The notes under the pieces were generated by a model. The model made no database searches and was not told the DNA's origin. It was given only the letters and a program-made list of their open reading frames with translations. A stretch of 64,000 nt of DNA from Eledone cirrhosa (taxonomy: Eukaryota): positions 192,572,001 through 192,636,000 of the forward strand of contig OZ024740.1 in the NCBI GenBank assembly GCA_964016885.1, in the 5' to 3' direction. The position numbers and the translations under genes were made by a program. This document shows positions 24,683 through 64,000 of the stretch, one piece after another (position 1 is the stretch's first letter; every line of letters begins with the position of its first letter).

Positions 24683-24878
24683 TATATAACCGTTTTAAAG
24701 TTATCACTATGTTTCAGAAAATTTGCCATTGCGAGCGCATCATGTATTTAAATTGTGCCCAGCTGCTATTACATACATATAATGAGCACTTACCTGTGAT
24801 ATTTTAATTTGTGTTTCGTTAATGATTTAAATCACACATTTTCTGAAACATGGTGATAACATTAAAACAGTTATATAT
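24683..24878. mobile_element. MITE-like element with about 40-bp terminal inverted repeats in a TA context
   Basis: tatataaccgttttaaagttatcactatgtttcagaaaat ... attttctgaaacatggtgataacattaaaacagttatata. Confidence 0.65.
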
Positions 24879-32302: not shown

Positions 32303-32600
32303 GTAACACCGTCTGACAGAAATTTGTCAGCAAAAGAGTATGAGAAACTTGCTAAATATAAAGATCTAGAATTTGAGATAAACAGAATGTGGTACCTTAA
32401 AACAAACTTTACCGGTATCGATAGCAGAGCTAGGTGTCATAAAGAAGGTGTTCAGATTTTTCTAGGAAACATATCTTGTAAATCTAGCATCTATGAAATC
32501 CAATTGAGAGTTAGAACAAGTACCACTCATAGATATCGTAAATCTTTGTCTTTGTAATATATTACAAAACACATTTTTTTCTGTTTAATTTTTAGAGCAA
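32303..32600 (+). mobile_element. Old R4/Dong-like RLE retrotransposon 3' fragment
   Basis: PSDRNLSAKEYEKLAKYKDLEFEINRMWYLKT...IYEIQ...T.H..RKSLSL*, homologous to 54075-54400. Confidence 0.75.
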
Positions 32601-32918
32601 ATATAGTCAATAATTCATACTATTCAAATATCATTAATGCAAAATCAATTCATATATATTATACATCTTAAAACTCCATTTTTATTGTTTCTGATTTTTA
32701 AATTATTTACCTCTCAACTTTTGTGATGTGACATGTTATGAGAATGTAAGAAGGAATAAAAAAAAAAACTATCAAAAACTCTCAAAAGACAACGATGCCT
32801 GACCAAGTATCTGTTCGATACTCGGTAGTCGTTGCACATAAAAGGAAATCAAAGAAAAAAAGAATAATAATGATAACAACAACGAGAAGAAGAACAACAA
32901 CAACAATAGTAAAAATAA

Positions 32919-33091
32919 TTGTTTCTATATTTGGCACAAGGCCAGCAATTACCCAGTACATTACTGGTACTTTATTTTATCGACCCGGTAAGGATGAAAG
33001 TTAAAGTTAACCTCGGCAGGATTTGAACTTAGAATGGCAAGGGCCGTAACTCTATACGTCAAAGCATGGCGTCCGACCCTCAACCGATACT
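32919..33091 (-). mobile_element. tRNA-derived SINE with ATT tail
   Basis: Reverse complement of the 31545-31729 family; flanked by degenerate AAT/AAC repeats. Confidence 0.8.
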
Positions 33092-33193
33092 AATAAAAAT
33101 AATGGTTACTCATATGGATTTTAATGGTTGTATGGTGGACCAGGTTGAAAGGACTGAAGACAGACACTTTTCACTTAATAATAATAATAATAA

Positions 33194-33381
33194 TTGTTTG
33201 TACGTAAGGCACAAGGCCAGCAATTGACCAGTGCATTACTGGTACTTTATTTTATCGACCCCGTAAGGATGAAAGGCAAAGTCAACCTCGGCGGGATTTG
33301 AACTCAGATCGTAAAGGGACGTAACTATGCTGGAAAGCATGGCATCCGCCCCTCTACCGATACTGCCAATCCACCGCCCTT
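33194..33381 (-). mobile_element. Full-length tRNA-derived SINE between two (AAT)n tracts
   Basis: Minus strand ggcggtggattggcagtatcggtaga...gagttcaaatcccgcc...gcctttcatccttacggggtcgataaaataaagtacc...ggccttgtgcc..caaaca(att)n. Confidence 0.88.
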
Positions 33382-33650
33382 AATAATAATAATAATGCTG
33401 TCTTTATTAACCACAAAGGTTTACATAAAGTAGACATTAAGGACAGTACAGGACAATACAGGACGGTACAAATGGGCATTTCTGCGTATTAAAAATAAAA
33501 ACAAAAAAAACAGAGGATGTAATAAAAGGTCAATGAAAAATTCCCCCAATAGGGGCGAGACTTCCGCGGGCCATCGTGGAGAAAGCCCATTAAATAAAAC
33601 CAAGGCGTCCCTGATCACCAAGGCAAATGTCCTCTCCCAGTTTTCCATCT

Positions 33651-36366: not shown

Positions 36367-36402
36367 GTTGAAATGGAGTGGAAAAGATGGGAAAGACCAC
36401 TT

Positions 36403-38397
36403 ACCTTACTTCTCGTAGAGGAAGGACGGCTTTTCCATCCTTTTCACTGCTTGTGGCCTCCTCAGGAAGGATGTCCTTATAAATCCTCCTGGAGAGTGCT
36501 TGTCGGAAGTCTCCGATGTCTTTGGGGAATTTTTGTTTTAGTGTCATGTACGTTTTCTGTGTGATGCGAGTGATTTGTATGTGTGGAGGTGGTGTGAATT
36601 TTGGGGTTGTTGTGTAGTCTTTTTCTGTGATGCTGGTGTTGTGTTTGATGTAGTGTAATCATTGGTTGTTCAAATTTAAAGCTGTGTAGTGTGTATCGTT
36701 TTGGTTGTTTTGTTTTGTTTGCGTTTGTTGTGGGTTTGTTTCTGTTTCGCATTTTGGTGACTTTTGTGGTGTAGGTAATGGTGGTGTTGGGGTTAATGAT
36801 GGTGATGGTGTTGGTGTTTGGGGTGATGGGGTTGGTGATGCTGGTGTGGATGGTGGCATATCTGTCCTAACTGTTTTGTTTGGTAATTTATTTGTTTCCC
36901 TCTGTATTTTGTTTTTGGAGGGGAAGGAAGAGAATTTTTCTTTTTTGGTTTCTTTTTTTCTTTTTTCCTGATACCGTTTCCAACTCCTCGTCGTCACAAT
37001 CTGTCTCCAGTCGTGATAGGCCGAGGAGTGTAAAATCCTCCACAAGCGTTAGTTTTGGTTGTGGCGTGGTGGATGGTGTAGGCGCTGGTGCTAGTTCTGA
37101 AGCGTTGGCTGGTGGTGGTGTTGGTTTTGCTGGTAGTGGTGTTGGTTTTGCTGGTGGTGGTGGTTTTGGTTTTGCTACTGTTGCTGGGCTTGTTGCTGTT
37201 ATAGTTGCTTCTGTTGCTGATACAGTTGTTGCTGCCATCTCTGCTACTGGTGGTGTTGATGGTTGAGTCACTGAGGTGGGTAGGAGAGGTGGCCTCAACC
37301 TTTTAGCCTGAGGGAAGAAAGCCCTTAGGTGGGTTCCTTCACCACAAACGACACACCTAAGCCTTCTGCCCTCGACAATTACGGTTCGGTGGCTGCCGTC
37401 AGTGAGCTCTATTACCTCTGGGATCTCCTCAATGCTTTTTTGGTCCGCTTGGATCAGGAGCTCCATCCCAGATCCGGACCAGTTCTCCTGCTTTTCTTTT
37501 GCTATTTCTATTATCTTTGTGTTGGCTTCGATGCCGGCGAGGACGGCCGCTATTAGCCAGGGAATTTCGATCGCCGGTGGAACGTGGGTCACCCTGATCT
37601 TTAAGAGTCTCTGGCCACAATAGCTTGGGACGAGTGTGAAGTCGTCACTTCTTAATGGGGCCATGAAGTGTTCTCTAGCCTCCTCTGATGTTTCAAAGAA
37701 CACGTCCACGGTTCCATACTTCTGTCCAGGTCTGATGTGGGTTTTTCTTGCCCACACATGTACCAAAGCTTTTGGGATTTGGGACTCGGATGCCCGTTCC
37801 ACTCGGCGCGATTTTACATTAATTGTTCGATACGACACGGTGCATAGGCGCCCATGCTCCATTTTATTAGGTGGGGGTGAGGCTGACCCTGTACCCATCT
37901 TTCTTTACCATTTTTTTGGCATTTTCTAATTCTTCCTGAGTTACCGTAAATGCTTCGCACTGTTTTGCTACTCTGGCAAAACTCAGGGTGGTTTTTTAAT
38001 GTCATTGTTGCTGTTGTTGTATCGTTATTTTTGTTATTATTAAATTTAGTTTCAGTTGTGGTGGTGGTGACGTCAGTGGTGTTCGGTGTGGATGAGTCCA
38101 TTTTGGTTGAAATTATTTCGACATTACGAGTTGATTTATTTTTTCCTTTTGTTTCTGTTGTCGCGGTGGTGGTGGGGTGGTGGTTGTCGCGGTGGTGGTG
38201 GTGGTGGCGGCTTTAACACCTACAGTCATTGGTAATGGCGGGAAATGAAAGTCTGTCTGAGACAAATTTAAAATATTGCCACTGCTTAAATTCTTTGTGT
38301 TGGCAAACGTAGTAATATTTACAATGGTGGTGTCGGTGTGAGGTGTTAGTTTGTGAGGAAAGCTCTCAGCTGCTTGGTGCAGAGGTGAATTAACCAT
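36403..38397 (-). pseudogene. LINE ORF1 (gag-like, zinc knuckle, Pro/Thr-rich tail), frameshifted
   Basis: ORF 36888-37898 contains VIVEGRRLRCVVCGEGTHLRAF (degenerate CCHC). The N-terminal extension in ORFs 38113-38397 and 37814-38101 is shared with copy 2. Confidence 0.8.
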
Positions 38398-38604
38398 TTT
38401 TTTCAAAGAAATGTTTTGATAATCATAAAAGTTTAAATTTTGGGCATAAGGCCCCAATCTTTTTGGGTGTCCTTTTCGGAAAACAATGTATGTGCGCTTA
38501 TAAACTGTTAACAATAAAATTTTCGATAAATGGCAATTTTTAACAAACGGAAATAACAAACCTTTGCGGAGCTCACGATGATACGATTTACTACGTAGGT
38601 CGCC

Positions 38605-38637
<33 letters not shown>

Positions 38638-38639
<2 letters not shown>

Positions 38640-41600
38640 TTTCATTTATTAGCCACAAGGGCCGACATGTAGGGGACAATACAAAGAGAGGGACAGTGGT
38701 GGTTTATAATAAGTTCGAGTAAATGTGCACAATGGCAAGACTAATTTAACAATGAAGATATAAAAATATAAAATACACTATGCATAAATATAACAAAGTA
38801 AATTCCCCTATAGGCGTGGACGACCCAGGGGTGACTCAGGTACCCCACCAATCCTGAACCCCCCTGCGCTTCTAGGGCACCCAGGGAGAGCACCCCTCTC
38901 CTCAAGTTAGCTAGCCTATAGGCGCATGGTCAAAGTAGGCCCAATCACACGGGCCATTCTCGCCACATTCATCCACCTTTTAGGAAATGTACTGGAGGGA
39001 AGCAATTCTCTCTCTACCCTCACCCTCCTTTCCAGGTGACTCTTGAAGAAGTTGTTGAGGGATTGGCCGAAAAGAAAAGTGTCTGTCTACAATCCTTTTA
39101 ATCTGGTCCACCATATTTCCTCTTTCGCAACGGCCACCAGACAGAGGAAAATTGCCTGCTCTTTCCTGACCTAAGGAAGGCGGCGGGTCGATCTTCACTA
39201 TGGACTCGGCCGATAGCCGGATCCGTTACACACGCCCTAGAAGCTATAACACCACAAGAAGGTAAGGCACGGACATTGGACAAGTGCGTGCAGAACGGTT
39301 TCGTCGCTCTGTGCTCATCTTGGGCAGGTCCGTCTGACAGTACTGCCGTGCCTGTAGAGTTTATCCTTAACGGCAGTGACCCCCGGTAGCACTGCCGAGC
39401 GAGGGATTTCTGGAAATGTTCCATCGTCCCCGGCTCGAAAGTCCTCCGGTACAGACTGGTCAGTTCGACTTCGTCAAGGTCCAAAGCTTCTCCGAGTGTG
39501 TCATCGCACTTGCCCACCACTAATCCTCTATAGATCTCGAGAGTAGAAGTTCCACTGATCGCATTGCCCGCTTGGTAGAGGGCAGTGAGTGCCTGGCAAC
39601 ATTCCAGGTGCCAGTCACCCAGTCTCGGTCTCTTCTTGACCCAGGACTGCAGCTCAGTCAAAGAAACGAGCTGCGGAAAGCCCGTCTGTTAAACGGCGAC
39701 CACACCTGTTCACTGTTTAGGCAGAATATCTGGAGATGTCGCAGTCTCAGCGCATGTCTGCGCATCATTAGCCACGGCAGCCCAGCCATCCGCGTAGAGG
39801 GTGCTGGCAGCAGAGGGACCGCGTCACCAATGGAACTTGTACTTTCCACAAGAATTTGAAGTGGAGGCGTTCCAACTTGACGAGGCGCAGCCGGGGGCAA
39901 GGCACGACGGTCAAGCGGTAATAGATGACGGACGCGATGTACGCATTCGCCACCTCCGCGCGACCTTTCAGTAATAGCTTCCTCCCAGGCCATTTTTGGG
40001 TGAGATTGGCTACTCTGCTCGTTACCTCGTCCCAATTCTTTTCCACCTGGAGGTCTGGTCCAAACCAAAACCCGAGGAACTTTGCCGGTTGGTCCGCCCA
40101 GCGCTCCACGACACTGTTGGACGGCATAGGCTTGCCTCTCCAGGTTCCTATCTGCAAGCCCACCGACTTTTCCTGGTTAAGTTTGGCTCCTGTCAACCTT
40201 TCATATTCCTTCAATAAGGAGCCGACCACCTCAATTTCTGAGGTGTCCGACACCATAACGGTGATGTCGTCCGCATAAGCCGAGACCGCCTTTCCACATC
40301 CCGGTTCGTGTTCGATGCCCTGCAACAGATCCAGCTTCCGCAGTACAGGCTAGAGAATCAATACGTACAGAAGGGAAGGTAGAGGGCACCCTTGACGGAC
40401 GGATCTGGAGAGCCGAAATGGTTCCGAGAGGTGGTCATTAACCTTAACCACCGAGCGTGTGCCGTTGTGCATTGCAGCGATCCAGCTTCTGAAGACAGGG
40501 CCGAAGTCAGCTGCTTTGAGGGCAAACTCCAGATACCGATGCTCGACCCTATCGAATGTTTTCGATTGGTCTAAATTGATCAGTGCCCCACCGAAGCCAG
40601 GTTTACACCCTACCCTCACTATGATGTATCGAATGAAGTGGAGTTGTAGTGTATAGACCAGGATGGGATTACACAGGTTTGCGCCTCCTCAACCAAATCC
40701 TCGACGACAAGCGTTAATCTCTTTGCAAACCCCTTGGCCAAAATCTTAAACTATGTGTTGAGCAGAGTTATGGGCCTGAAGTTGTCTAATGTATCCCTCT
40801 TGTTCTCGTCTTTCCTTATCAGCGTCACCACTCCTCTTCTCACAGAACTGGGAATACCCCCATCCTGTTGCCAGTAGCGTAGAGTGCTTCGATGAGATCC
40901 GAGAACTAGTGTGGCTTATTTACGTAAAGCTCATAGGGCAGGTCATCCAAACCAGGTGACTTGCGCCTCATGCAGCCGCAATGGCGTCCTGAATTTCGGC
41001 TGAAGTAATCGGCCTTTCTCAGCGCTCAGTGTAGATCGTCGAGATGCCTGGCAAGCCGTCAGGGTATGGACTGAAATCCGCTACTCTCTCTGACTCGTCA
41101 CTCTCTCCGAACAACCGAGCAAAGTGCTGGCAAAAGGCCTCACACATCCGCTTGGAATCGTTTATCTAGTGTCCGTCTCGGTCCGGCAAAGACCAAATTG
41201 TGGTTTTATTACCACGTTGCGCCTCTGCCACACGGGCCCATCGAACAGCTTTGGTTCCATCGTTTCTCAGCGCACGCGCCATAGCTCTGACAATGCAACA
41301 TTCGTGTTTCGCATTGAAGAAATGATCTAATGCAATTCTCCCCGCTAGCACGCCAGTTGCAATGCCACTACAAATAGCCTCGTCTAACTTATCTACCAGT
41401 TCCGCCTCCTTTCTATTTTTCTCTAACGCTAGTTCTTTGCTGAACCCTATCGAAGTTACTCTAATCTCACTTTTGAGGGCCTCCCACCATCTGTTGTTGA
41501 CGATCCCCCTGTCAACTTTTGCTTAATTAAATGTTTGACTCGGTCCCTGTAAGATTTACGTGCCGCAAATGATATGTTCAGCTTCCAGTAACGAGCTCCT

Positions 41601-43539
41601 AACCTACGTGTTTTATCTAGGTCGACTATACAGATCGAAAATGTGTGATCTCAATAGGCGACCGTTATAAAAAGTGGGCAGCCGACACTATTTCTATATA
41701 TTTTCCTAATGAAGATCCTATCTATATACGATCTAGATGACCCTATGTGGTTGGTCCACGTCCACACTGACGCATTGGGGAAATCTAGTCGGTACCTGTC
41801 AGACAGTTGGAACCGGCTGATTATGTGCTTGAGGCTTTTGCACACTCCGCTCCTGTCAGCTACTCCCACACAATCCCAGCGTGCGTCTAAGATGCCGTTC
41901 CAGTCATCCCTAACAGTAAAAGGCGAGACGTATGCAAAAGGTTTCCAGGCGCCTAAAGAAGCCCGCTCGTCCGGATCCAGTATAGGCGTAGATGGCCAGC
42001 AGTCTGAAGGAACCACCTTCGCTATTGCTCACATCCAGTATCACCAACTTAACGTCCGAGTACAGGAAGATCGAACTTACCTCGAGATCCAGGCCTTTCC
42101 TAAACAGTAATGCTACTCCACCTCCCATTCCCGGCCTGCTAGCAGATGCGAAGATATGATAGTCGTCGAAAAGAGGGCTAGTGCGCGCATGACGAAAATC
42201 CTGGTCTCGCTGACGGCAATCACATCCATTTCTAGAGACCTGATGTCGTTGAGCACGCAACCCTCATTCCAGGGTGAGCCCAGGCCACGAACATTTAAAC
42301 CTCCTACTCTTCATATTGTCCTGTTGGCATATTAAACGAGAGAGGGAAGTTATACTTACCTCCCGGGGTTTTGTGAAGGTCGGGTGGTTCGACCTCCTTC
42401 GTTGGTTGGGTTTCTTTTGGGAACCCCTTTGAAAGTCTCGATGTGGGTTTCACGTTCGGGGTTCCCACGTCTTGAGCAAAGCTCTCTCGAATTTCTTTGT
42501 AGGTATCGAGCGACATTCGCACCAGAAACAAATCTTCTGGCACGCAAAATGTGCTCAATTCAAAGATCTCCCCCTTTGTTTGAATGTCCTCGCTTTGTGC
42601 TAAGAATGCCATCAATTTATCGTTGGCCCTTCTGACAAGCACGAAGTTTTTTAATGTTTTGTTGGTCTGGTTTTATTTGCTTTCGTTTCGGTGACTGTGG
42701 TGGTGATCATTATGGTGGTGTTGTTTCGTGTATGTCTGTATTTGTTGTAGGTGTGGTGTCTGCAATTTCAGGTGAATGTGTGTTTATTTGTTCTTATGTT
42801 GGTTTAGGATGTTGGGGTTGATGTTATTGGGGAAGTGTTTGCGTTAGTGGTGTCTGTATATTTTGTTGTGTATGTTTTTGTGTTTTATGGGGGCTTTTTT
42901 ATGTTTTTTGGCACTTTGGAGTTTTCCTTCTTCACTGCTGGAAGACAAAGTGTCTGTGGCTGGTAGTGTATCTTTGTGTGTGCATTTACGGTTTGTCTAT
43001 GTGTATAATTGAAGGGGTAGGAGGAGAGGGAAAGCTATCCTCGTTATCCTTTTGGCTTGGTTACAGTGATGGCGGTGGTCCGGCTGTTTTTGAAGTTGAT
43101 GGAGTTAACCGTGTCATTGTTGGTGTTGTTTTTGGTGGTAGTGATGCAGCTTTCCGTGCTAACAATGGCGTTGTCAACAAATGAGGTTTGCGACCCCCGC
43201 ATCTTTGAGATGAGGGCAGAAGGCTTGCAGATACCTTGCTTCCTCGCAGACGAAGCAGTGCGGGTTTCTTCCCTCAGTGATTAATTGAATTGTTGTCCTG
43301 TCCTGCAGGCGGGCAATATCCGAGATGTTGTTGATGTCCTCTGGTTTCATTTGGAGAAGAATCTCAAAATCCATTCCGGACCAGATCTCTCCCTCTGTAT
43401 GTTTGATATCTAGGAGGGTATTGTCTGTTCCATCCCCAATTATGCATCCCAGGAGCCACCATATAATTTATTTATGTTGGGATCCTATGCCCATGGAGGA
43501 CGAGTGCATAATAATGCCTTCCGTTCTGCAGGGGCTCAC
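38638..43539 (-). mobile_element. Tx1/L1-clade LINE, divergent subfamily B, 5'-truncated within ORF1
   Basis: EGRNPHCFVCEEARYLQAFCPH (ORF1); [43 protein letters not shown] (ORF2); 3' end CCCTTGTGGCTAATAAA..(ATT)n. Confidence 0.9.
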
Positions 43540-43587
43540 AATAATAATAATAATAATATTAATAATAATAATAATAATAATAATAAT

Positions 43588-44409
43588 GATTTATTTAATA
43601 ACCACAAGGGTTTACATAAAGTAGACCTTAAGAACAGTGCAGGAAAATACAGGACGGTACAAATGGGCATTTCTGCGTGTAAAAAAAACAAAAACAGAGG
43701 ATGTAACAAAAAAATAACAATGAAACAATAGCGGGGAGACTTCGGAGGGACATTTGTGGAGAAAGCCCATTAAAAGGCCACAGTGACCCTGACGACCAGG
43801 GCAAGTGCCGTCACCCAGTTGTCCACCTTTAATTTACAGACACATACTCAGAGTAGGCCCATTCACTCGGGCCATTCTTGCTTCTCATACCCATCTTTCA
43901 ACAAAATACTGGGAAGAAATTTGAAAAAGTGAATCAGGGCATCACCGAAGAGGTAAGTGCTCGTCTTCAGCCCTTTCAAACGTGTCCACCATACTATCTC
44001 TTTCGCCATGGCCAGACAGATAAAAACTGCCTGCCCTTCCCGGCTAAAGGAAGAGGGCGGGGCAATCCTCACGATGGACTCAGATGATAGCCGGATCCGT
44101 CCTACACGCGACAGCAGGTGTTCAACATAAACCCACAAGTCAGCAATTTTCGGACACTGGACGAGTGCGTGCAGGACGGGTCGTCGCCCTGCACGCATCT
44201 CGGACATGCCCGGCTGACGGCACCTCCATTACTGTAGAGTTTATCCCGAACTAGCAAGGCTCCTCGGTAGCACTGCCAGGCCAGGGATTTTTGGAAGTTG
44301 TCCATAGGTCCCGAAAGTTTTTCCGAAGAGATTGGCTAGTTGATTTTCGTCGACGCCGAGAGTTTCCCCAAGTACATCGTCGCTCTTCCCCTCCACTAAT
44401 CTTCTATAG
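43588..44409 (-). mobile_element. Tx1/L1-clade LINE subfamily A copy 3 (5'-truncated, about 0.8 kb)
   Basis: MDNFQKSLAWQCYRGAL.VRDKLY..CPRC; the 3' UTR is collinear with 33397-33700 and 54580-54850. Confidence 0.92.
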
Positions 44410-44445
<36 letters not shown>

Positions 44446-45675
44446 AATAATAATAATAATAATATGTTTACTTGGTTGCTAAGAACACTGTTTAAACATG
44501 AGTGCTTTCATTTTTAAATATCTATATAAAACACAAGTTACACCACAATCATGAGATAAGAAGGAAATGAAAGCCATCAAATATAGCGCTATGATGTCCT
44601 TAGATATGTTATAATTATTTACATTACTATATTTAAAAACAACAGGTGTAAATCTACCATTGTGATGAGCAAAACAAGAATGTGATTATGATCACAGGTC
44701 TGCTCAATTTGAGGTAACATAGAATTAGACAACAAACAACCCACTCTTAACGAAAGCGTGAGCATTGAGTAATTTGATTCACCCTTCTCCATACAAGCAA
44801 TTGTTTCTACTGATAGAGAGCAGCGAATCAACTGTAATGTTGAATATAATTAATCAAATTTTGAATCTGTTGTTGATCATATTTAAATATCATTTCAAAG
44901 GCTTTCAGTTAAACAATAAAGTTAATATGTGCATTGTTTCTGTTATACCAACAACTGGAGAATCTCCCAAACTGTCTGCATTAAAATATAATGTCTAGCC
45001 TCTCCGTCGCAACTCAAAGGATTAATTGATGAGCTGAAAGAAGTTTAATACGCTTTTGTACTTTGGTATCATCAAATAGTTTATATTCACTTGTAAAGGA
45101 ATTTACATTAATGGATTCCTTTTAATAATGCTTGATAACTTTCAAATATCCATCTGGTTGTGATACTCATCCCTTTTAATTATAACTATATTATTAGTAA
45201 TCGACGAATGTCAACATAATATATGTGCTACCTTGATATCTAATTCACTTTCAATTATAGTGACTCATCTACCAAAATTCCTAACTTCGGATACACAAAG
45301 TCTGAATTGTTTCTGCTTTATAGCACTTTCATCTCGTTTAAATATATTCTAATTAGCACCAAACAGTAATTCGAACCCGATTACAGAGGTCGTATAACAC
45401 GTTAGTTCAAAAGACGAATATATCTATTACGTGAGTTCGAAAGAGCTTCGTTTGTTCAATTAGGAGAACGTGATTTATGGTTATTGATCTTTCTTCAACC
45501 TATCTATTGGGACGAAAAATATGTTTTCACGCTTCAAATTTTATACATCATAAATAAAATTACAATTTCAACATAAATCGATTTTCCTTTCCTCCTCTTT
45601 GATAGAAACATCTAGACTAGAGATTCTAAATTTGTAATGTAATGATTTATTTCTCAGTCACCAAAGCAATATATG

Positions 45676-51915: not shown

Positions 51916-53194
51916 GATGTTGATTGTGGCATTGTTTAGTTTCTGAGCTTTATTACTTCAAATTCTGCCTTCTTCTGCTAGGAGTTCCAATGGAAGATAG
52001 TATCAGCAAAGAAAAAAAAAACAATGGATAAATGGTTTCCTTGGTTAGATTTGGTGAACGGTTGGATGAACGACAAACTCTAACTAAATGACAACACCAA
52101 CTGTCCTAACACTCAAATAAGCTTTGCATATATAAACAGAAGAGACTCGTAACTTTCAGAGAACGTTTAAGTAAAACATTTTAATGGATTTTAGTAACAT
52201 TATTTGGTATATTTCACTTCATACTGCTTGGTTGACATAATAACGTTACTGCTTAGGCATATCAGGTAGGTAATTGTATAATTAGGCAGTAAATATCATC
52301 AAAGATGATTTTATGATAAAAAAACACTGAGTACACCCTCTAAAGTTTATAAAAGCTGCTTTAGAAAACAAATGCGTCCCTTCATAGTTTTATCATTGAA
52401 TATCTATTTCTGCCTGTTCTTCACGATTCCAATAAACTATACGACACACATAGTTTACAGGTTTGTTTATCTTGTCTGTGTAAGTTTTAGTTTCATGAAA
52501 TGAAAGTTCCCTATTATATAAACATTGAAAGATGTACGTTTATCTGCTGAACTGCCGAACATTATCACCAGAACTAAATTTCCTTACAGCTGCTTTACTT
52601 TCAGATATTTTCCTTTTAATAACCATTTAGTTTTATCGTTAAACAAAATCTTTCGTTCAAAGAACCGGTCGGAAATTCTGAACACATTACAAGAAATCGA
52701 GACGGCTGTCTGGTGCTCTGATATTCAGAGATCAATCGTCTCGTACGGACAAAGTTCAAATTACTAAAAGTAAATATTAAGTGATTGAGTATAACCTAAT
52801 ATCGGATAAAGGCTAATTGACGTATATGTTAACAAACATAGTGAGAATAAATGTCCTCGATATTTGTATCAAACACTAGGTGTTTATTTAGTAAAATTTT
52901 ATATAATTCCATCGCTTATAGACCACAACTCTTTTGTAAATAACAAGTCAATGGACGCTAAGCTACAAAAGTGGTTTAGACAAACACTTAAACGATATTG
53001 AAATTCTGTATAGACATAAAATAAGCTTCTAGACAATACCAACAAATAATTATACTTAATGCTTATATTACCATTAGCGTCGCTGATAAAATAACAGTGA
53101 TATATCCGATTAGGAATGGTCAATTCTGTATCAAAGCTGAGAGATTTAAATTATTTATTGTGAATTCAATACGATGACAACAATAATAACAACA

Positions 53195-53569
53195 AAGATT
53201 TCTATTTCAGGTACAAAGCCAATAATTTAGAGGCATAGAGTGGGTAGTATATTTTATCGAACTCGGAAGGATAAAGTCTTAGTTGACCTTGGCGTGTGTA
53301 AACTCAGAACATAGAATGTTGTATCTCCAAACGGGAAATCATTTGTCCAACAATCCAAATATTAATAATGGTTTCTTATATAGGCACAAGGCCAGCAATT
53401 TCGGGGAGGGCAAAGTCGATTAAATCAACCCCAGTGCGTAACTGGTAATTTATTTTATCGACCCTGTATGGATAAAAAGCAAAGTTAACATTGGCGAAAT
53501 TTGAACTCAGATCATAAACACTATGCTGCAAAGCATTGCGTCCTCCCTCTACCTATACTGCAATCCACC
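53195..53569 (-). mobile_element. Two adjacent SINE copies (old 53195-53360; younger 53370-53569) in an AAT context
   Basis: ggcacaaggccagcaatt...tattttatcgaccc..ggataaaaagcaaagttaac..gaaatttgaactcag; same family as 33194-33381. Confidence 0.8.
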
Positions 53570-53590
53570 AATAATAATAATAATAATAAC

Positions 53591-53624
<34 letters not shown>

Positions 53625-53625
<1 letters not shown>

Positions 53626-54011
53626 GACAAGAATGTATCTATAAAAACATTTGAAAAATTGAGCAAGTATAAGGACCTGGAGATAGAAATTGGAAAAATG
53701 TGGAAATTGAGAACTAAAACAATACCAGTGGTTGTAGGCGCTCTGGGAATGATACCTAAGGGGTCTAACGACTACTTATCGCAAATCCCAGGAAACCCGC
53801 GTATAGGAGAAATACAAAAGATAGTTCTAATGGGAACTGCCCATATACTAAGGAAGATCCTGTCAATATAAGTACATCACAAGTCTAAACACTAAGGATG
53901 CATGTGTGAATATGTATGTTCTTTCTTGAACATGGCGGACCTTGTTGTCTCTTGAGGTCACTGGTTGTGACTTGGTGATAACTCGTATAAACATAAAGCA
54001 AGATAAATGCA
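53625..54011 (+). mobile_element. R4/Dong-like RLE retrotransposon, short 3' copy between (TAA)n tracts
   Basis: EKLSKYKDLEIEIGKMWKLRTKTIPVVVGALG...IQKIVLMGTAHILRKILSI*, then 3' UTR and (TAA)n. Confidence 0.88.
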
Positions 54012-54065
<54 letters not shown>

Positions 54066-54069
<4 letters not shown>

Positions 54070-54543
54070 ACCTAATGGATGCAAATAGACCTGATATATT
54101 ACTGAAGGACTTTAAAAAGAGGGCATGCCTGCTAATTGATATGTCCGTTCCAATAGACAAGAATGTATCTATAAAAACATTTGAAAAATTGAGCAAGTAT
54201 AAGGACCTGGAGATAGAAATTGGAAACATGTGGAAATTGAGAACTAAAACAATACCAGTGGTTGTAGGCGCTCTATGAATGATACCTAAGGGGTCTAATG
54301 ATTACTTATCGCAAATCCCAGGAAACCCGCGTATAGGAGAAATACAAAAGATAGTACTAATGGGAACTGTTCATATACTAAGGAAGATTCTGTCAATATA
54401 AGTACGTCACAAGTATAAACACCTAAAGAGGCATGTGTGAGTATGTATGTTCTTTCTTGAACATGGCGGATCTTGTTGTCTCTTGAGGCCACTGGTTGTG
54501 ACTTGGTGATAACTCGCATGAACATAAAGCAAGATAAATGCAA
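54066..54543 (+). mobile_element. R4/Dong-like RLE retrotransposon, second short 3' copy
   Basis: NRPDILLKD....CLLIDMSVP.D.NVS.K..EKLSKYKDL (PD..D..K RLE motif); nearly identical to the preceding copy but with a longer 5' extent. Confidence 0.88.
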
Positions 54544-54829
54544 CTATAATAATAATAATAATAAAATAATAATAATAATGCTTTATTTATTAACCACAAG
54601 GGTTTACACAAAGTAGACATTAAGGACAGTACGGGACAATACAGGAGTGTACAAAACGGCATTTCTGCGTGTAAAAAAACAAAAAACAGAGGATGTAATA
54701 ACAGAACAATAAAGAAATTCCCCAATAGGTGGGAGACTTCCGAGGGACATTCGTGGAGAAAGCCCATTAAAAAGCCACAGTGACCCTGACCACCAGGGCA
54801 AGTCCCCTCTCCCAATATTCCACCTTTAA

Positions 54830-57800
54830 TTTACAGACACATATTCACTCGGGCCATACTCTCTCATCCATCCTTCAACAAAATGCTGGGAAGAGAGCAC
54901 TTCCCTCTCTACCCTGATTTTCCTTTTTCAATTGAAATTTGAAAAAGTTAATCACGGCATCACCGAAGAGGTAATTGCTCGTCTTCAGCCCTTTCAGACG
55001 TGTCCACCTTACTATCTCTTTTGCCATGGCAACCAGACAGATAAAAACTGCCTGTCCTTCCAGGCTAAAGGAAGAGGGCGGGGCGATCCTCACGATGGAC
55101 TCAGCTGATAGCTGGATCCGTCCTACACGCGACAGCAGGTGTTCGACATAAAGCCAAAAGTGAGAAATTTTCGGACACTGGACGAGTGCGTGCAGGACGG
55201 TTTCGTCGCCCTCCGTGCATCTCGGACATGCGCGGCTGACGGCACCACCATGCCTGTAGAGTTTATCCCGAACTGGCAAAGCTCCTCGGTAGCACTGCCA
55301 GGCCAGAGATTTCTGGAAGTTGTCCATAGAACCGGCCCGAGAGTTCTTCCGAAGAGATTGGCTAGTTGATATTCGTCGACGCCTGGAGTATCCCCAAGTA
55401 CGTCGTCGCTCTTCCCCTCCACTAATCCTCTATAGAACGCCAAGGTGGAGTTTCCACCGATCACATTGCCCGATTGGTCGAGAGCTGTGAGCGCCTGAAG
55501 ACATTCCAGTCTCCAAGCGCTCCCTCTCGGTCTTCGCTTGACCCAGGACTGCAGCTCCGTCAAGGAGACGAGCTGGGGAAATACGCGTCTAGCAAACGGC
55601 GACCATACCTGATCACCGCCGAGGAGGAGGTGGAGATGTCGTAGCCTGAGCGCGTGTCTGCGCAACATCAGCCACTGCATTCCCAGCCCTCCACGTAGCG
55701 GGTGTTGACAGCAGATGGACAGCCTGACCATCGGAGCGCGTCCCTTCCACAAAAAGCGAAAGAGCAAACGCTCCAGCGCAGTCAGGTGAGACTTAGGAAA
55801 AGATACGACGGTCAGGCGGTAGTAGATGACGGACGCGATCTACGCGTTAGCCACCTCTGCTCGACCTTTCAGGGATAGCTTCTTCGCCCATTTCTGGGTG
55901 AAAGAAGCCACCTTGCTCGTCAACTCGTCCCAGTTTTTGTCCGTCTGGGTTCCGGACCGAACCAGACCCATAGCAATTTAACCGGTCCTTCTGTCCAGCG
56001 CCAGACGACGCTGTTGGACGGCATGGACCTGCCTCTCCAGGTGCCGAGCTGCAGGCCCACTGACCTTTCCTGGTTGATAATTGCTCCTGTCACCGCTTCG
56101 TATTCTCTTAGTGTAGTGCCGATCGCCTCGATCTGTTTGGCGTTCGACACCACTACCGTGACATCGTCCGCATATGCTTACACGGATATTCCGCATCCTA
56201 GTTCGCGCGGGACCCACCTCAACATCTCCGGTTTGTGCAGTAATGGCTCGAGAGTCAATACGTACAAGAGGGATGAGAGGGGACATCCTTGGCGGACCGA
56301 GCGCATGATGTTGAACGGTTCCGAAAGGTGACCGTTCACTCTCACCACAGAGCAGATGTCGCTGAGAATGGCAGCGATCTAGCCTCTGAAGACTTGCCAA
56401 AAGCCAGCCGCCCTCTTGACTGCTACTAGTTAACGATGGTCGACCCTATCGAAAGCTTTCGACTGATCGAAATTGATCAAGGACCCACCCGTGTCTGCGC
56501 CTCTCCCACCAGACCACCAAGCCAAGCGCCAACCCCTCTGCTAGCACCTTGTCCAAAATCTTGTAATCTGAGTTTAGCAGAGTTTTGGACCTGAAATTAT
56601 CTATGTTATCCCCCTTGTTTGGTTCCTTTCTCAGCAGCGCCACCGCTCCTCGGCTTACAGAGATGGGAATTATCCCATTATTTTGCCAGTTGCAGTAGAC
56701 GTCCGCCAAGAGGCCTCCGAACAAGTCTGGCATATGTACGTAAAGTTTATAGGGCAGACCATCGAAACGAGGCGATTTACCCCTTGTGCAGCCAGTCATT
56801 GCCTCCCGTACTGCAGCGGCTGTTATCGGCTTTTCGCAACACTCCGCCTCAGTGGCCGAGAGCCGGGGAAGTTCGTCGAGGTAGACACTAAAGTCCATCC
56901 CTCGATCCGGCCCGCCGCTTCCCGCGTGTCTGAGAGCATGCACACTAGCTCTGACAACGCAGCCTTTGTGCTTTGCATTGAAGAATTGGTCAAGGGCCAA
57001 TTTCGCCGCAAGTACGTCGGTCGCGATGCCTTTGCTAAGCGCCTCGTCTAATTTTCTAACTAGTTCTCCCTCTGCTCTATGTTTCTCTATTGTTAAAGTC
57101 TTACTAAACCTAATGGACTCTATTCTAATCGCTCTTTTCAGAGCAAAACACCACTTGATGTTGACGATGGCCGTCGTCAACGTCCGCTACTAGTTCGCTA
57201 ATCCGGTCTCTGTAAGCCTTGCGCGCTAGTAAGGACGCGTTTAGCTTCCAGTAGCCGGGTCCGCGTCTACGAAGCCTATCTAAGTGAAGCACACAGATCA
57301 CGAATTTGTGGTACGTGTAGCTGACTATCTTGAATTGTGGACAGCCTATGCTAGACCTATCTATTTCCCTACAAAATACTCTATCTAGATATGAGATCTT
57401 GATGATACTGTGCGATTTGTCCAAGTCCACATTGGCACATTCGGGAAATATAATCGGTACCTGTCAGACAGTTAAAATCACCTGTGCAGGTAGCTGAGGC
57501 TCGTGTACCCTCCTCCCCTATCCGCTAATCTCACACAGTCCCAGCGTGCATCTAAGATCCCGTTCCAGTCGCCCACTAACACTAAAGAGCGGGACGTTCC
57601 AAGAAAGGTCTACAGACGCCGGTAGAAATCAGGCCGCCCGGCTCCTGTTGGGGCATAAACGGCCACTAGCCTGAAAGCTTGCCCGTCTCCGCTGGTCACG
57701 TCCGACACCACCAACTAACCCTCTGGGTCCAGGAATATGGCCCGTATGGCGAGATCCAAACCTCTCCGAAAAAGCTCAGCAAGTCCACCTCCCGATCCAG

Positions 57801-57990
57801 GACGGCTGGGAGATGCGTACACATCGTAGCCGCCGAAGATCGGTGCGAAGGCCCGTGCTTTGGAGATTCTGGTCTCGCTGATGGCCACTACATCTATGTT
57901 TAGTGACCTGAGGTCGTTGAGCAGGTGGCCCTGCTTCCATGACGACTCCAAGTCACGCGCATTTATGCTGCCTATTCTGAATGAGGTCAT
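54830..57990 (-). pseudogene. LINE ORF2 (APE-RT), frameshifted
   Basis: MTSFRIGSINAR, SYLDRVF, GPGYWKLN, DGLPYKLY, DNFRS.TLLNSDYKIL, CPRCTEGDETVLHALVQCP. Confidence 0.9.
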
Positions 57991-58024
57991 GTTGAAATGG
58001 AGTGGAAAAGATGGGAAATACCAC

Positions 58025-59965
58025 TTACCTTACTTCTCGTAGAGGAAGGACGGTTTCACCATCCTTTTCAGTGCTTCTGTCCTCCTTTGGAAGGATGTCC
58101 TTATAAATCCTCCTGGAGAGTGCTTGTCGGAAGTCTCCGATGTCTTTGGGGTATTTTTGTTTTAGTGTCGTGTACGTTTTCTGTGCGATGCGAGTAGTTT
58201 GTATGTGTGCAGGTGTTGTGAACTTTTGGGTTGTTGTGTAGTCTTTTTCTGTGGTGCTGCTGTTGTGTTGGATGTAGTGTAATAATTTGTTGTTGTCCAA
58301 ATTTATTACTGTGTAGTGTGTATCGTTTTGGTTGTTTTGTTTTGCTTGCGTTTGTTGTGGGTTTGTTTGTGTTACGCTTTTTGGTGACCTTTGTGGTGTG
58401 GTGTTGGTGGTGGTGTTGGGGTTAATGATGGTGATGGTGTTGGTGTTTGTGGTGATGCTGTTGGTGATGATGGTGTGGATGGTGGCATATCTGTCCTAAC
58501 TTTTTTTGTATCATAGTTTATCTTTTCCCTCTGAGTTTTGTTTTTGGAGGAGGAAGGAAGAGGAATTTTTCTTTTTTGGTTTCTATTCCTTTTTTTCTTT
58601 TTTACTGATACCGTTTCCCACTCCTCGCGTCACAATCTGTCTCCAGTTGCGATAGGTCGGTGAGTGGAAAATCCTCCACAGGCGTTGGTTTTGGTTGTGG
58701 CGTGGTAGATGGTGTAGGCGCTGGTGCTTGTTCTGGCGCGTTGGGTTGTGTTGGTTTTGTTACTGTTGCTGGGGTTGTTGCTGTTACAGTTGCTTCTGTT
58801 GTTGCTGCTACAGTTGTGGCTGCCATTTCTGCTGCTGGTGGTGCTGATGGTTGTGTCATTGGGTTGGGTAAGAGAGGTGGTCTCAGCCTTTTAACCTGAT
58901 GGTAGAAAGCTCTTAGGTGTGTTCCTTCACCACAAACGACAAACCTAGGCCTTCTTCCTTCGACGATTACGGTGAGGTGGCTGCTGTCAGTGAGGTCTAT
59001 TACCTCTGGGATCTCCTCAATGCTTTTTTGGTCCGCTTGGATCAGGAGCTCCATCCCTGCTCCGGACCAGTTCTCCTGCTTTTCTTTCGCTATTTCAATT
59101 ATCTTGGTATTGGCCTCGATGCCGGCGAGGACGGCAGCCATTAGCCAGGGAATTTCGATGGCCGGTGGAACGTGGGTCACCCTGATATTCACGAGACTCT
59201 GGCCACAAAGGCTTGGGACGAGTGTGAAGTCGTCACTTTTTAATGGGGCCATGGAGTGTTTTCTGGCCTCCTGTGGTGTTCCAAAGAACACGTCAACGGT
59301 TCCATATTTCTGCCCACGTCTGATGTCGTTTTTCTTTGCCCACACATGTCCCAAAGCTTTTTGGATTTGGGACTCGGATGCCCGTTCCACTCGGCGCGAT
59401 TTTATGTTAATCGTCGGATAAGACACGGTGCATAGGCACCGATGCTCCATTTTTATTAGGTGGGAGGGTGAGGCTGATCCTCTACCCATCTTTCTTTACC
59501 GTTCTTTTGGCTTCTTCTAATTCCTCCTGAGTTACCTGCATTGCTTCGCACTTTTTTGCTACTCTGGCAAAAAGACACGGTGGTTTCTTATTCTCATTGT
59601 TGTTGTTGCTCTTGTTGCTATCGTTATTTTTGTTATTGTTAATTTTAGTTTCAGTTGTGGTGGTGGTGGCGTCAGTGATGTTGGGTTTGGAAGAGTTCAT
59701 TTTGGGTGAATCCATTTCGATGTCACAAGAACATTTCTTTCTTTCTTTTGTTTCTGTTGTCGATGTGGTGTTGGTGGGGGGGGGGAGTGGCGGATTCAAC
59801 ACCTGCAGTCATTGGTAATGGCGGGAAATGAATGTCTGCATGAGACAAATTTAAAATATTGCTATTGCTTATATCTTTAGTGTTGGCAAACGTAGTAATA
59901 TTTACAATGGTGGTGTCGGTGTGAGGTGTTAGATTGTGAGGAAGGTGTGACTCTGAGTCGTCCAT
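58025..59965 (-). pseudogene. LINE ORF1, frameshifted
   Basis: ORF pieces 59723-59965, 59482-59802, 58602-59489 and 58025-58300 are collinear with copy 1 ORF1. Confidence 0.8.
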
Positions 59966-60187
59966 GATTTTTTTTCAAAGAAAATATTTGTTTGATAATT
60001 AGAAAAGTTTAAATCTCTTTGAGTGTCCTTTTCAGAGAACAATGCATGTGCACTTATATACAGTTAACAATACTAATTTTCCATAAATAGCAATTTTACA
60101 CAACTGAAAATAACAAATATTTGCGGAGCTCACCATAATACGATTTACTATGTAGGTCGCCAATAATAATAATAATAGTAAACATAA

Positions 60188-60218
<31 letters not shown>

Positions 60219-60225
60219 AAAAATA

Positions 60226-62677
60226 AACCAGAAGATGCTGTTTGTACAGCTTGAAGGGAAAGAAAGAGTCAACGACTTGATCCCTGAGGTGGAACAAACT
60301 AAGACATTCTGGAGAGGAATATGGGAGCAGGATGTTAAACATAATGACCAGGCAGTGTGGATTGACACAGTACAAACAAGGAGAATAGTGAACAGGCACA
60401 CCAACAAACTGATTTGAGTATCAGAGTTGAAACTCTTAAGGGGCAGGCCAAAAAACTAACCAACTGGAAACCACCAGGCCCAGATGGTGTGCAGGAGTAT
60501 TGGATTAAAAATATAACATCCCTCCACCCGAAAGTGACAACCATGTACAAAGACTGCTTGTTCAATGTCAGGTCAGGTACCAGAGTGGTTGACAAAAGGT
60601 ACCGCAGTTCTGGTAATGAAAGACCGAATCAAGGGTAATGATGTTACCAACTATAGAGCTATCACATGTCTGTCCGTAATGTGTAAACTGTTGACAAGCA
60701 TTATGTCTGAGGAAATCTACCATCACCTCCACACAAACAACTTGTTACCGGACGAACAGAAAGGATGCCGAAAGAAGTCCCGTAGTACAAAGGACCAGTT
60801 ACTTATTGATAAGATGGTAATGAGGAATTGCAAGAGGAGACAAACTGGTCTTGCCATGGGATGGATAGACTACAAAAACGCATTTGACATGGTGCTCCAT
60901 TCTTGGATCACCAAAAGCCTAGAGATCTTCAGGGCGGCATATAACTTCAGACAGTTGTTGAGCAAAAGTATGAAGTCATTTAAAAACAGAGTTATCACCA
61001 GCTGGAGAATTCTTGGGAGGCGTGAAGATCAAGAGAGGTATCTTCCAGGGAGATAGTCTGTCCCCTCTGTTGTTTGTCCTTGCCTTTATGCCCCTGACCA
61101 TTATACTACGAAAAGTGAGAGCAGGATACAAGTTGGGAAAGGGAGAGCTTACTATCAATCACCTCATCTTCATGGACGATCTTAAGCTCTTCGGGAAGAG
61201 TGAGAAGTAGTTGGATGTGCTTGTTGACACTGTCCGTATTTTCAGCAATGATATATGTATGCAATTTGGTATTAGTAAGTGTGGAGTCCTTGTGATGAAG
61301 AAGGGTAAATTGAGAAGAAGCAACGGAATCCAGGTACCAACAGGTGAGATGATAAAGGAAATTGACACTGAAGAAGGATTCAAGTATTTGGGTGTTCTGG
61401 AGTCTGATGACATCAAGAACAAAAAAAAATGAAGGAATTTATAAGATCTGAATACATTCGGAGAGTAAGGACCGTATTAAAGTCACATCTGAACAGTGGG
61501 AATGCCATAGGTGCAGTAAATTCGCAAGCTGTGTCTATTATTAGGTACAGTGCGGGAATTCTGAGATGGAATGTTGCTGAACAAAAAGAAATGGATAGGA
61601 AGACTAGGAAGTTATTGACTATCTACAACATCTTTCACAACAGGAGTGATGTCGATAGACTCTACTTAAGGAGATCTGAATCTGGAAGAGGTCTTATCAG
61701 CATAGAGGACTGTGGTCTGATGGAGGAAAAACAACCTACACAAATACGTGACCGATAGTAAGGAGCCCATGCTCAGAATTGTACTGCAGGAGAGGACAAT
61801 AGACCAGGGGATCTCCAAGGAGGAAATAACAACAAGGAGAAAGAGCAGCCTTCATGAAAAATCCCTTCATAGTACCTTTTTAGAGAAAACAGAATTCAGA
61901 GATCCACAGACATGGAACTGGTTGAAAGGAGGAGACGTTAAAACGGCTACAGAAGGAATGCTAATGGCTGCGCAAGAGCAAGCCCTCAAAATGAAGTGGC
62001 TGAAACACCATATTTACAAGGAGGAGGCTAGCCCACTGTGCAGGTTCTGTGGAGAGAGGAAACTGTGGCTCACATTGTATCCGAGTGTAAACACCTAGCC
62101 CAGACTCACTATAAAGGCTGGAGACATGATGTAATGGGCAGGGTGATCCTCTGGCACCTATGCAAAGTAAACAATTTACCACATTCTGAGAAGTGGTATG
62201 AGCATAAGCCAGAGTCGGTGATAGAAAACGATTAGGTGAAGCTGCTGTGGGATTTTAGGATACAGACGGACAAAAACTGGAACAAAATAGGTCTGACCTG
62301 GTGGTTTGGGACAAGGAAAAAAGATCGTACCTGATTGTGGATGTGGCCTGCCCATTCGACACAAGAATGCAAGAGAAGGAGAGGGAGAAAATTAACCGAT
62401 ACCAGGATTTACAGTGGGAGGTAAAAATGATTTGGAACTGCCATGAATTCAAAGTGATCCCGATTGTCATTAGCGCATTATATACTATCTCAAAAAGTTT
62501 CCAGGGATGGTTAAAGAAAATTGGCCCCGCTCCACCTTTTGGAACACTTCAAAAGGCATGCTTGCTGGGAACAGCAAGAACCCTCAGATATGTCCTGAAT
62601 CTCTGAGGCTGCAGGTAGCAGCTTGATATTCATTTCAACAAACTTTCCAGTTAAATGACATTAATGACTGAGACTCA
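60226..62677 (+). mobile_element. R4/Dong-like non-LTR retrotransposon (RT, CCHC, RLE), 5'-truncated
   Basis: NWKPPGPDGVQEYWIK, NYRAITCL, EQKGC, WIDYKNAFD, GIFQGDSLSPLLF, HLIFMDDLKL, CRFCG...ETVAHIVSEC...RHD, DLVV..IVDVACP..EKINRYQDL; ends in (TAA)n. Confidence 0.92.
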
Positions 62678-62686
62678 AATAATAAC

Positions 62687-62734
<48 letters not shown>

Positions 62735-62736
<2 letters not shown>

Positions 62737-64000
62737 TTTCTTTATTGGCCACAAGGGTTGACATCAAGAAAAACATCACAGATGGAACAGGTGGTACGAT
62801 GTGGGTTTTGTGCGTGTAAATATTTTTTTATTATTTATATAAGAAAAGAAAAAAGACATAAAACATATATATATATAAACAATAAAATGAAAATTGAAAC
62901 AATGAAAAATTCCCCAATAGGAGGGAAACCTCCGAGGGTTACTCGTGGCGAAAACCACACAAAAGACCACGGCCAACCTGACTACCAGGGCAAGCGCCCT
63001 CTCTCAATTTTTCCATCTCTCAAACTAGAGACGTTTATTCAGAGTGGTCCCGTTCACTCGGACCAACCTCCCTACATTCACCCAACTTTCAACAAACTTG
63101 CTAGAAAGCAGCACTTGCCTCTCCACCCTGATATTCCTCTTCAAGTGAAACTTGAAAATCAGGGATTCGCCGAAGGGGAAAGTGTTTGTCTTTAATCCTT
63201 TTAACCTTGTCCACCACACAATCTCTTTAGCCATGGCCACCAGGCAGATGAAAACCGCCTGCCCTTCCTCCTCAAAGAAAGACGGCGAGACCATCTGCAC
63301 AATGGACTCAGTCGACAACGGGTTCAGTCCCAGACGTGACAGCCACTGTTCGACATAGCTCCACAAGTCAGCAATGCTCGGTCACTGAACGAGTGCGTGC
63401 ACAACGGTTTCGCTCTGCGCGCATCTCGGAGAGGCTCGGATGACGGCACTTCCGTGCCTGTAGAGCTTATCTCGAACCGGCAGCGCTTCCCGGTAGCACT
63501 GCCAGGCCAGGTATTTTTGGAAGTTATCCATAGGCCCCGGGCTGAAAGTTCTCCGGAAGAGAGCAAGCAGCTGATCTTCTTCGACGCCCAGGATCTCTCC
63601 GAGAACGTCGTCGCTCTTCCCCTCCACTATTCCTCTATAGAACGCCGAGGTGAATGTTCCACCGATACTGGTGCCCAACTGGGAGAGGGCAGTGAGCGCC
63701 TGGAGACATTCCAGTTTCCAAGCGCTATCCCTCGGTCTTTTTCTGACCCAGGACTGCAGCTCCGTCAAGGAGACGAGCTGTGGGAAAATGTGCCTGGCGA
63801 ACGGCGACCACACCCGTTCACCATCAAGGAAGCACCAGAGATGTCGCAGCCTCAGCGCATGATTGCGCATCATCAGCTATGGCATGCCCAGTCCTCAACG
63901 CAACGGGTGTTGACAGCAGATGGATCGTCTGACCATGGGAGCGTGTCCCTTCCACAATAAGCGGAAGAGGAAGCGCTCCATTTTTGTGAGAGTTGGGCTG
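62735..64000 (-). mobile_element. Tx1/L1-clade LINE, subfamily C, 3' part (runs off the window)
   Basis: RNHALRLRHL...MDNFQKYLAWQCYREALPVRDKLYRHG...ETVVHAL; distinct 3' UTR ending CCCTTGTGGCCAATAAAGAAATC(ATT)n. Confidence 0.9.

Follow-up and report, generated by a model that had tools for sequence, protein, structure and literature searches.

Two unrelated groups of retrotransposons, Dong/R4-like elements with a restriction-like endonuclease (RLE) and L1/Tx1-like long interspersed elements (LINEs) with an apurinic/apyrimidinic endonuclease (APE), use one microsatellite in the genome of the octopod Eledone cirrhosa, in opposite and nearly fixed orientation, genome-wide. The feature is real; both its halves have precedents, and the pairing is new within the literature searched. 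It was noticed in a 64,000-nucleotide stretch (assembly GCA_964016885.1, contig OZ024740.1, positions 192,572,001 to 192,636,000, forward strand), hereafter the window, which lies inside a 443-Mb contig of the 3.0-Gb host genome. At 53170-64000 of the window, a chain of elements runs SINE(-), SINE(-), Dong-1(+), Dong-1(+), LINE-A(-), Dong-2(+), LINE-C(-), SINE standing for short interspersed element. The five plus-strand (AAT)n tracts and the order and strands of the elements were re-read from the sequence and stand as claimed by the initial annotation. We consider it probable that the chain consists of independent insertions stacked in (AAT)n/(ATT)n, Dong reading into (AAT)n and the Tx1-like LINEs into (ATT)n, likely through nicking and priming of opposite strands. 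Below, Tx designates LINE-A (TxA), LINE-B, LINE-C (TxC) and a fourth family together.

The 3′ ends alone are uninformative on polarity, as they are fixed by the tail of each family, and the test is the 5′ junction. At their 3′ ends, Dong-1 and Dong-2 read into (AAT)n at 30/30 loci each, and AAT followed none of 30 LINE-A ends. On the 5′ side, ATTATT in phase precedes 1,614 of the 1,687 exact LINE-A heads of the whole genome. At the fetched loci, (ATT)n was found before every Tx head (LINE-A 49/49, LINE-B 1/1, LINE-C 2/2, fourth family 8/8), and (AAT)n before 11 of 12 Dong-1 heads. Truncated copies were counted once per truncation point, at loci up to L262 plus the window, excluding those that lacked a 3′ end or aligned over fewer than 100 bases. 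The 75 truncated Dong copies divide into 63 after (AAT)n, none after (ATT)n and 12 after neither; the corresponding 31 truncated Tx copies comprise 16 after (ATT)n, 1 after (AAT)n and 14 after neither. When 306 tracts were oriented as AAT, the 5′ ends lying at them were on the plus strand for Dong (111/111) and on the minus strand for Tx (81/82) and the SINE (26/29). Finally, a Dong-1 tail meets a LINE-A tail on the opposite strand, 39 bases away at most, at 221 junctions genome-wide. A Dong-1 tail leading to a same-strand LINE-A head was found 0 times genome-wide, compared to ∼36 expected under free orientation, a figure derived from the ratio of LINE-A heads to tails (1,687/10,244). Junctions at both ends, 3′ and 5′, thus show the polarity, which extends to two lineages of Dong and four families of Tx1-like LINEs. 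The initial annotation had RLE elements always reading into (TAA)n and APE elements always into (ATT)n: the genome-wide orientation is indeed non-random (221 versus 0 at the junctions just described), and "always" has to make room for rare exceptions (1/82 Tx).

A CR1-like LINE, whose tail is also (ATT)n, served as control. When its truncated copies were retrieved through their own 3′ ends, 0 of 27 had an upstream tract, and 3 more ran off their locus (L087, L203-L232). CR1 was rejected on this count as a third targeting clade, and we conclude that a repeat tail alone is insufficient to produce the pattern. Two CR1 copies encountered beside Tx elements do sit in Tx tails (2 of 28 CR1-like copies). 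The tails of CR1 are in turn used by other elements, at 13 junctions (Dong 3, opposite strand; SINE 5; Tx 5, same strand), and SINE heads were located in several of them. The two-clade account does not stand as worded, since this third, non-targeting clade supplies (ATT)n tails too.

The SINE targets short ATT sites, mostly outside microsatellites, and is not a microsatellite specialist. An upstream tract was found in 2 of its 30 closest copies, and in 13 of the 69 copies with a 3′ end present in an unselected sample of 80 stretches of 10 kb at fixed positions (800 kb). Non-repetitive duplications of 9-22 bases were detected for 35 of 75 copies, starting with ATT in 32 of the 35, and the apparent tail of the SINE is mostly the start of its duplication. 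For one SINE inserted within LINE-C's 3′ untranslated region (UTR), the empty site is available in the reference copy and has the duplicated stretch once, meaning that the site pre-existed. The inclusion of SINEs among the elements reading into (ATT)n was justified for their orientation at tracts (26/29), and not for their targeting (2/30). Over its last 40 bases, the SINE resembles the ends of Tx elements (p 0.0003-0.02) but gives no match to those of CR1, Dong or RTE (p 0.06-0.98); on this 3′ likeness CR1 and RTE were discarded as partners. In the chain, the 3′ end of the SINE at 53370-53569 matched those of LINE-B, LINE-C and LINE-A with p values of 0.0003, 0.002 and 0.009 (shuffle control). 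Between the LINE and SINE families, stem pairs of the 3′ hairpin change from C-G to G-C and from A-T to G-C; the loop was the search key, and its conservation is by construction. Because this hairpin is shared, it is likely that the Tx1-like machinery mobilises the SINE, at relaxed specificity. No tRNA match was found in Rfam over the SINE region (53100-53650), and likeness to A and B boxes was judged by eye only. At two loci (L040, L125), SINEs have inserted, antisense, into the 5′ UTR of Dong-1, at its short internal run of AAT.

The members of the chain and the tracts between them are as follows.

53195-53359, minus strand: old degenerate SINE at the left end of the chain, its ends placed from sequence; 76% identity with the main SINE family across 68 bases
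53370-53569, minus strand: SINE with the small 3′ hairpin common to Tx1-like LINEs; 81% to the main SINE family
53570-53625, plus strand: (AAT)n tract, 18.7 units
53625-54011, plus strand: 5′-truncated Dong-1; its protein is 100% identical to residues 1136-1216 of an intact copy of 1,216 residues
54012-54064, plus strand: (AAT)n tract, 17.7 units
54074-54542, plus strand: older 5′-truncated Dong-1 with another truncation point; 94.5% to a full-length copy, 94.8% to the adjoining copy
54546-54579, plus strand: (AAT)n tract at the tail-to-tail junction of Dong-1 and LINE-A
54580-60161, minus strand: LINE-A (TxA), L1/Tx1-like APE LINE; 87-92% to an intact copy
60162-60226, plus strand: imperfect (AAT)n tract at the head-to-head junction of LINE-A and Dong-2
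60228-62677, plus strand: 5′-truncated, frameshifted Dong-2 with an RVT_1 match; 92% to other copies
62678-62734, plus strand: (AAT)n tract, 19 units, at the tail-to-tail junction of Dong-2 and LINE-C
62735-64000, minus strand: 3′ part of a LINE-C (TxC) of 5.9 kb in all, running off the window; 83% to LINE-A over open reading frame (ORF) 2

The two SINEs are joined merely by a 10-base AT-rich stretch (53360-53369). LINE-A has kept both ends, with broken frames and two internal deletions, and no element within the window has intact frames. Beyond the window edge, LINE-C extends for 4.6 kb; a tract, a third Dong-1(+) and (AAT)21 come next, bringing the full chain, with its part past the window (to about 70440), to ∼17.3 kb. 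The members are distinct copies, 84-99.7% identical to their family reference, each with its own truncation point. Judging from sequence identity, the Dong-1 at 53625-54011 would be the youngest member of the chain and the last to have arrived, and the LINE-C would be younger than the Dong-1 beyond it.

The intact Dong-1 copy (L133) encodes a single frame of 1,216 residues with a central reverse transcriptase (RT; RVT_1, E 5×10−29), a CCHC motif and PD..D..K. Its nearest solved structures are R2 proteins (E 5×10−26), and the domain profile search gave no Exo_endo_phos (APE) match in this protein. The C-terminal CCHC and endonuclease motifs lie at residues 1029-1046, 1057 and 1113-1146 and are kept in Dong-2; we take RHD and PD..D..K to define the restriction-like endonuclease motif. 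Insertion in (TAA)n, characteristic of the R4/Dong clade, was seen here in the 63 of 75 truncated copies and 11 of 12 full heads that follow (AAT)n. No named Dong or R4 sequence appeared among the 120 matches listed. Dong-2 forms a lineage of its own, its protein sharing 39% identity with that of Dong-1. All 40 scored genomic Dong-1 copies are 99-100% identical to the window copy at 53625-54011, from which we conclude that Dong-1 is very young, and open-frame copies exist for both enzymes, LINE-A and Dong-1. An old Dong-like 3′ fragment (window 32306-32554, plus strand, 42% to the Dong-1 protein) lies behind a (TAC)n/(TGC)n field, not (AAT)n.

The intact LINE-A copy (L145) has an ORF1 frame of 531 residues with one CCHC knuckle (C-x2-C-x4-H-x4-C) and an ORF2 frame of 1,152 residues with APE, RT and CCHC in that order. 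ORF2 matches Exo_endo_phos (9×10−14), RVT_1 (1×10−28) and zf-RVT (6×10−8), its catalytic motifs are present, and its best solved-structure match is human L1 ORF2p (E 2×10−52). The layout of the L1 superfamily (two ORFs; APE, RT, C-terminal CCHC) was found in LINE-A, and the other families are placed by DNA likeness; LINE-A, LINE-B and LINE-C are 71-83% alike across ORF2. The same profile search found no Transposase_22 match in LINE-A ORF1, for which Atlas gave CCHC and ZCCHC3-type RNA-binding proteins as look-alikes (score 0.90-0.93), to be taken as no more than a lead. An ORF1 with RRM-like and CCHC knuckle domains has been linked to Tx1 (PMC5203782; this and the other papers are cited from excerpts of their text). 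We use "Tx1-like" as a working label, resting on the type of ORF1 and on targeting. No named Tx1 reference was among the protein matches of LINE-A; the nearest named relatives are a protein of Argonauta hians, at 73%, and, at 31-37%, an unclassified RT protein of medaka. By the rule quoted in PMC4494074, that target preference means more than 20% of flanks of one sequence type, the Tx group has such a preference, with 96% of LINE-A heads and 52% of truncated Tx copies. The fourth family, recognised in flanks (L136:3291 onward, L143:7903 onward), is young, as two of its copies are 98% alike. A large clade of metagenome-assembly proteins (P0006-P0083) is ∼50% identical to the RT region of LINE-A, and two metagenome scans yielded no relatives in other genomes.

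How crowded such sites are can be read from the LINE-A 3′ ends: among the first 100 listed, 38 of the 99 gaps are 15 kb or shorter, compared to 3.4 expected, and 34 of these 38 are on one strand. In the unselected sample, a library element adjoins 23 of the 30 tracts, and among tracts of at least 8 units, 8 of 9 touch Dong or Tx. Tx-related sequence covers 2.6% of the sample and Dong 1.6%; the CR1 coverage (315 short matches) appears inflated and was left unused. The tracts flanking Dong-1 have medians of 14 and 8 units, and at least 5 units remain on both sides in 25 of 37 copies. With tract remaining on either side, an insertion would thus make one target into two. Neighbouring pairs were Dong-Dong in 54 cases, Tx-Tx in 29 and Dong-Tx in 72. 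Same-clade neighbours (83) being as frequent as Dong-Tx ones, the regenerated sites serve both clades alike. The proposal that each clade creates landing sites for the other thus captures only half of the situation: tracts do lie on both sides of insertions, and either clade is at times the younger, and same-clade neighbours are as common. Reconstructing the order of insertion from divergence succeeded for part of the 63 Dong-Tx pairs, with Dong younger in 29, Tx younger in 7, and 27 left undecided by nearest-neighbour identity. Duplications are mostly invisible inside pure tracts, and an automatic search detected them at 1 of 36 insertions for Tx and 2 of 87 for Dong.

Three observations concern the tracts and their surroundings. 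One unselected 10-kb stretch (L201:3288-10000) contains a Dong-dominated chain of at least 8 elements. Two recurring non-library sequences stand beside Dong tails, in the 3′ flanks (L041, L078 and L134 for one, L085 and L090 for the other), and are likely other families using or supplying tracts. Some tracts adjoining elements grade into (AAG)n/(CTT)n (L013, L035, L086, L159), others into (AAC)n or (AT)n, which suggests that tracts alter their unit after insertion.

Target-primed reverse transcription is an established mechanism, and provided that both groups use it, priming from opposite strands follows from the polarity. Under this mechanism, the strand complementary to the 3′ flank would be nicked first. 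The APE LINE would then nick the (AAT)n strand at AAT/AAT and prime there, the SINE would likewise use the (AAT)n strand, and Dong would nick the (ATT)n strand. With one tract becoming two at each insertion, a tract once entered would go on gathering elements of either clade, and CR1-like LINEs, inserting without targeting, would likely seed fresh tracts through their (ATT)n tails. A broader picture, which we put forward tentatively and hold at somewhat below even chances, is that an octopod Tx1-like lineage evolved (ATT)n specificity and shares the microsatellite with Dong, acting on the opposite strand. With CR1 seeds and the SINE as passenger, this would form a self-amplifying ecosystem, in which several percent of the 3-Gb genome lie in polarised chains and most long AAT tracts are made by retrotransposition.

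Other explanations were weighed against the stacking of independent, opposite-strand insertions. Tx1-like LINEs might have just a loose ATT(AT) preference, arising largely from pairing of an RNA ending in AUU with the nicked strand, and the tract at full-length heads might partly be borne by the RNA, transcription starting within the tract upstream; Dong would then be the only true specialist. As this would predict, a short ATT site suffices for the SINE, for whose mobilisation the same enzyme is likely responsible, and a truncated LINE-A (L092) has a 15-base imperfect duplication starting with ATT. In the same direction point the nearly invariant phase before LINE-A heads and the tract found before 60/60 heads yet missing in 14/31 truncated Tx copies. 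However, truncated copies are unable to carry the RNA 5′ end, and 16/31 of those of Tx follow (ATT)n, compared to 2/28 for CR1-like copies and 2/30 for SINEs; moreover, LINE-A 3′ ends are clustered elevenfold above chance. We regard this explanation as unlikely, and it would alter the cause of the polarity only, the polarity itself being kept.

A purely passive origin, in which elements bearing (ATT)n or (TAA)n tails accumulate where insertions are tolerated and polarity merely restates each element's own tail, is very improbable. It accounts well for the 3′ polarity, which is trivial, and CR1-like LINEs do bear (ATT)n tails without targeting. It is largely refuted by the counts at 5′ junctions, where the same polarity is found, by the 27/27 tail-bearing CR1 copies devoid of upstream tract and by the missing same-strand Dong-to-LINE-A junctions (0 versus ∼36). 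An origin of the chain by joining across microsatellites during assembly, or by unequal recombination between tracts, we hold to be extremely improbable. Joining across (AAT)n would indeed preserve tract polarity, and when contigs and short reads were compared to 52600-62900, with repeats skipped, none spanned the chain or a tract: two runs from one sample matched the unique left flank (52600-53385, 0-1 differences). But the tracts measure 35-65 bases within a 443-Mb contig, the members are distinct copies with their own truncation points, and the pattern is repeated at hundreds of loci. Nor would joins place a tract at the exact 5′ truncation point, as seen in 63/75 Dong copies.

Several points weigh against two clades stacking in one target by opposite-strand insertion. 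Most loci were chosen by similarity to the window copies, which biases them to young copies. The unselected sample is small, and most of its Dong copies come from two loci; 7 of the 8 tract-flanked Dong 5′ ends at its tracts are from L201 and L267. In the same sample, 13 of 14 Tx-related pieces, all of them fragments diverged by 65-77%, lack a 5′ tract. So do 14 of the 31 truncated Tx copies, several of which are internal deletions or alignment ends, the copies not having been sorted singly. Relative ages were taken from nearest-neighbour identity, a crude proxy, on a small sample leaning to young Dong-1. No empty allele was found for any LINE insertion, and the search for nested insertions yielded SINE cases only. 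A degraded internal Dong-2 fragment (L276) sits between ATT runs, and a truncated LINE-A at 43590-44410 of the window adjoins the (AAT)11 of an inverted compound tract. Such tracts, (ATT)n beside (AAT)n, occur at some 5′ junctions (window 44410-44463, L121:8260-8289, L112, L137, L160) and explain several of the few exceptions to polarity. They possibly arose by fold-back or by top-strand copying during 5′ end joining.

That truncated LINE-A belongs to a further chain of the window:

32918-44463, minus strand: SINE, SINE, LINE-A, LINE-B and truncated LINE-A, joined by (AAT)n; Dong absent

The initial annotation had the two-clade architecture occurring twice in the window; a second (AAT)n chain does exist, but it is all on the minus strand and without Dong.

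Both halves of the pairing have relatives elsewhere. Dong elements insert in (TAA)n, which is reported as their target in most insects, molluscs and cnidarians (PMC7998251; see also PMC3812793), and Octopus vulgaris has Dong-R4 in abundance, with recent activity (PMC13282606, Table 1). Excerpts on these elements, including DongBg of Biomphalaria, describe the same single ORF, RT, CCHC, PD..D..K and target. For Dong itself nothing essential differs here; what is added is a pair of lineages, 39% identical to each other, that retain one polarity and occupy tracts jointly with an APE clade. For the L1/Tx1 group, Kibi, Koshi and the crocodilian (TTCC)n/(TTTC)n Tx1 elements are APE LINEs with microsatellite targets (TC, TTC, TTCC, TTTC) and tandem insertions, and in Tx1-Mar with SINEU the SINE prefers the same target as its Tx1 partner (PMC4494074). 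Unlike these, the families described here have an (ATT)n target and a mollusc host, neither of which is among those reported in the excerpts of PMC4494074. Convergence of an APE and an RLE element on one site is known for Keno (Tx1) and Utopia, in U2 snRNA genes; these have identical 3′ flanks, hence the same orientation, in a low-copy gene target that insertion does not multiply (PMC4640811). In Eledone the two groups face opposite ways, in a dispersed target that is regenerated.

SART and TRAS are both APE elements of the R1 clade. They insert in opposite directions, on opposite strands of the (TTAGG)n telomeric repeats of Bombyx (PMC7265360), whereas the enzymes described here are unrelated and their target is interstitial rather than telomeric. 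Papers on cephalopod repeats report L1-Tx1 and Dong-R4 as abundant or active, with targets unnamed in their excerpts (PMC13282606, PMC9115989, PMC8967140). In the full-text literature searched, Repbase being outside its scope, we found no ATT-targeting Tx1 family and no Dong/Tx1 pairing. The present case adds (ATT)n to the microsatellite targets of the L1/Tx1 group, and unites two phenomena reported apart, the convergence of RLE and APE elements on one target and the use of opposite strands of one repeat. Whether APE elements choose their target through the endonuclease or through RNA-DNA pairing at priming becomes a testable question, because the LINE, its relaxed SINE partner and the non-targeting CR1 with the same tail share one genome. 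The feature also bears on the expansion of cephalopod genomes, L1-Tx1 and Dong-R4 both being among the expanded families according to the excerpt of PMC8967140, and on the use of AAT microsatellites as markers, since their flanks would be present here in several copies.

The window contains other mobile elements. A Helitron fragment was found at 12092-14021 (Helitron_like_N, E 3×10−33), and a fragment of a Penelope-like GIY-YIG endonuclease at 24111-24713 (E 1×10−7). Three 3′ fragments, 85-88% alike and adjoining (AT)n arrays, lie at 3217-3436, 7204-7423 and 9545-9764, and from their peptide we presume them to be RTE-like.

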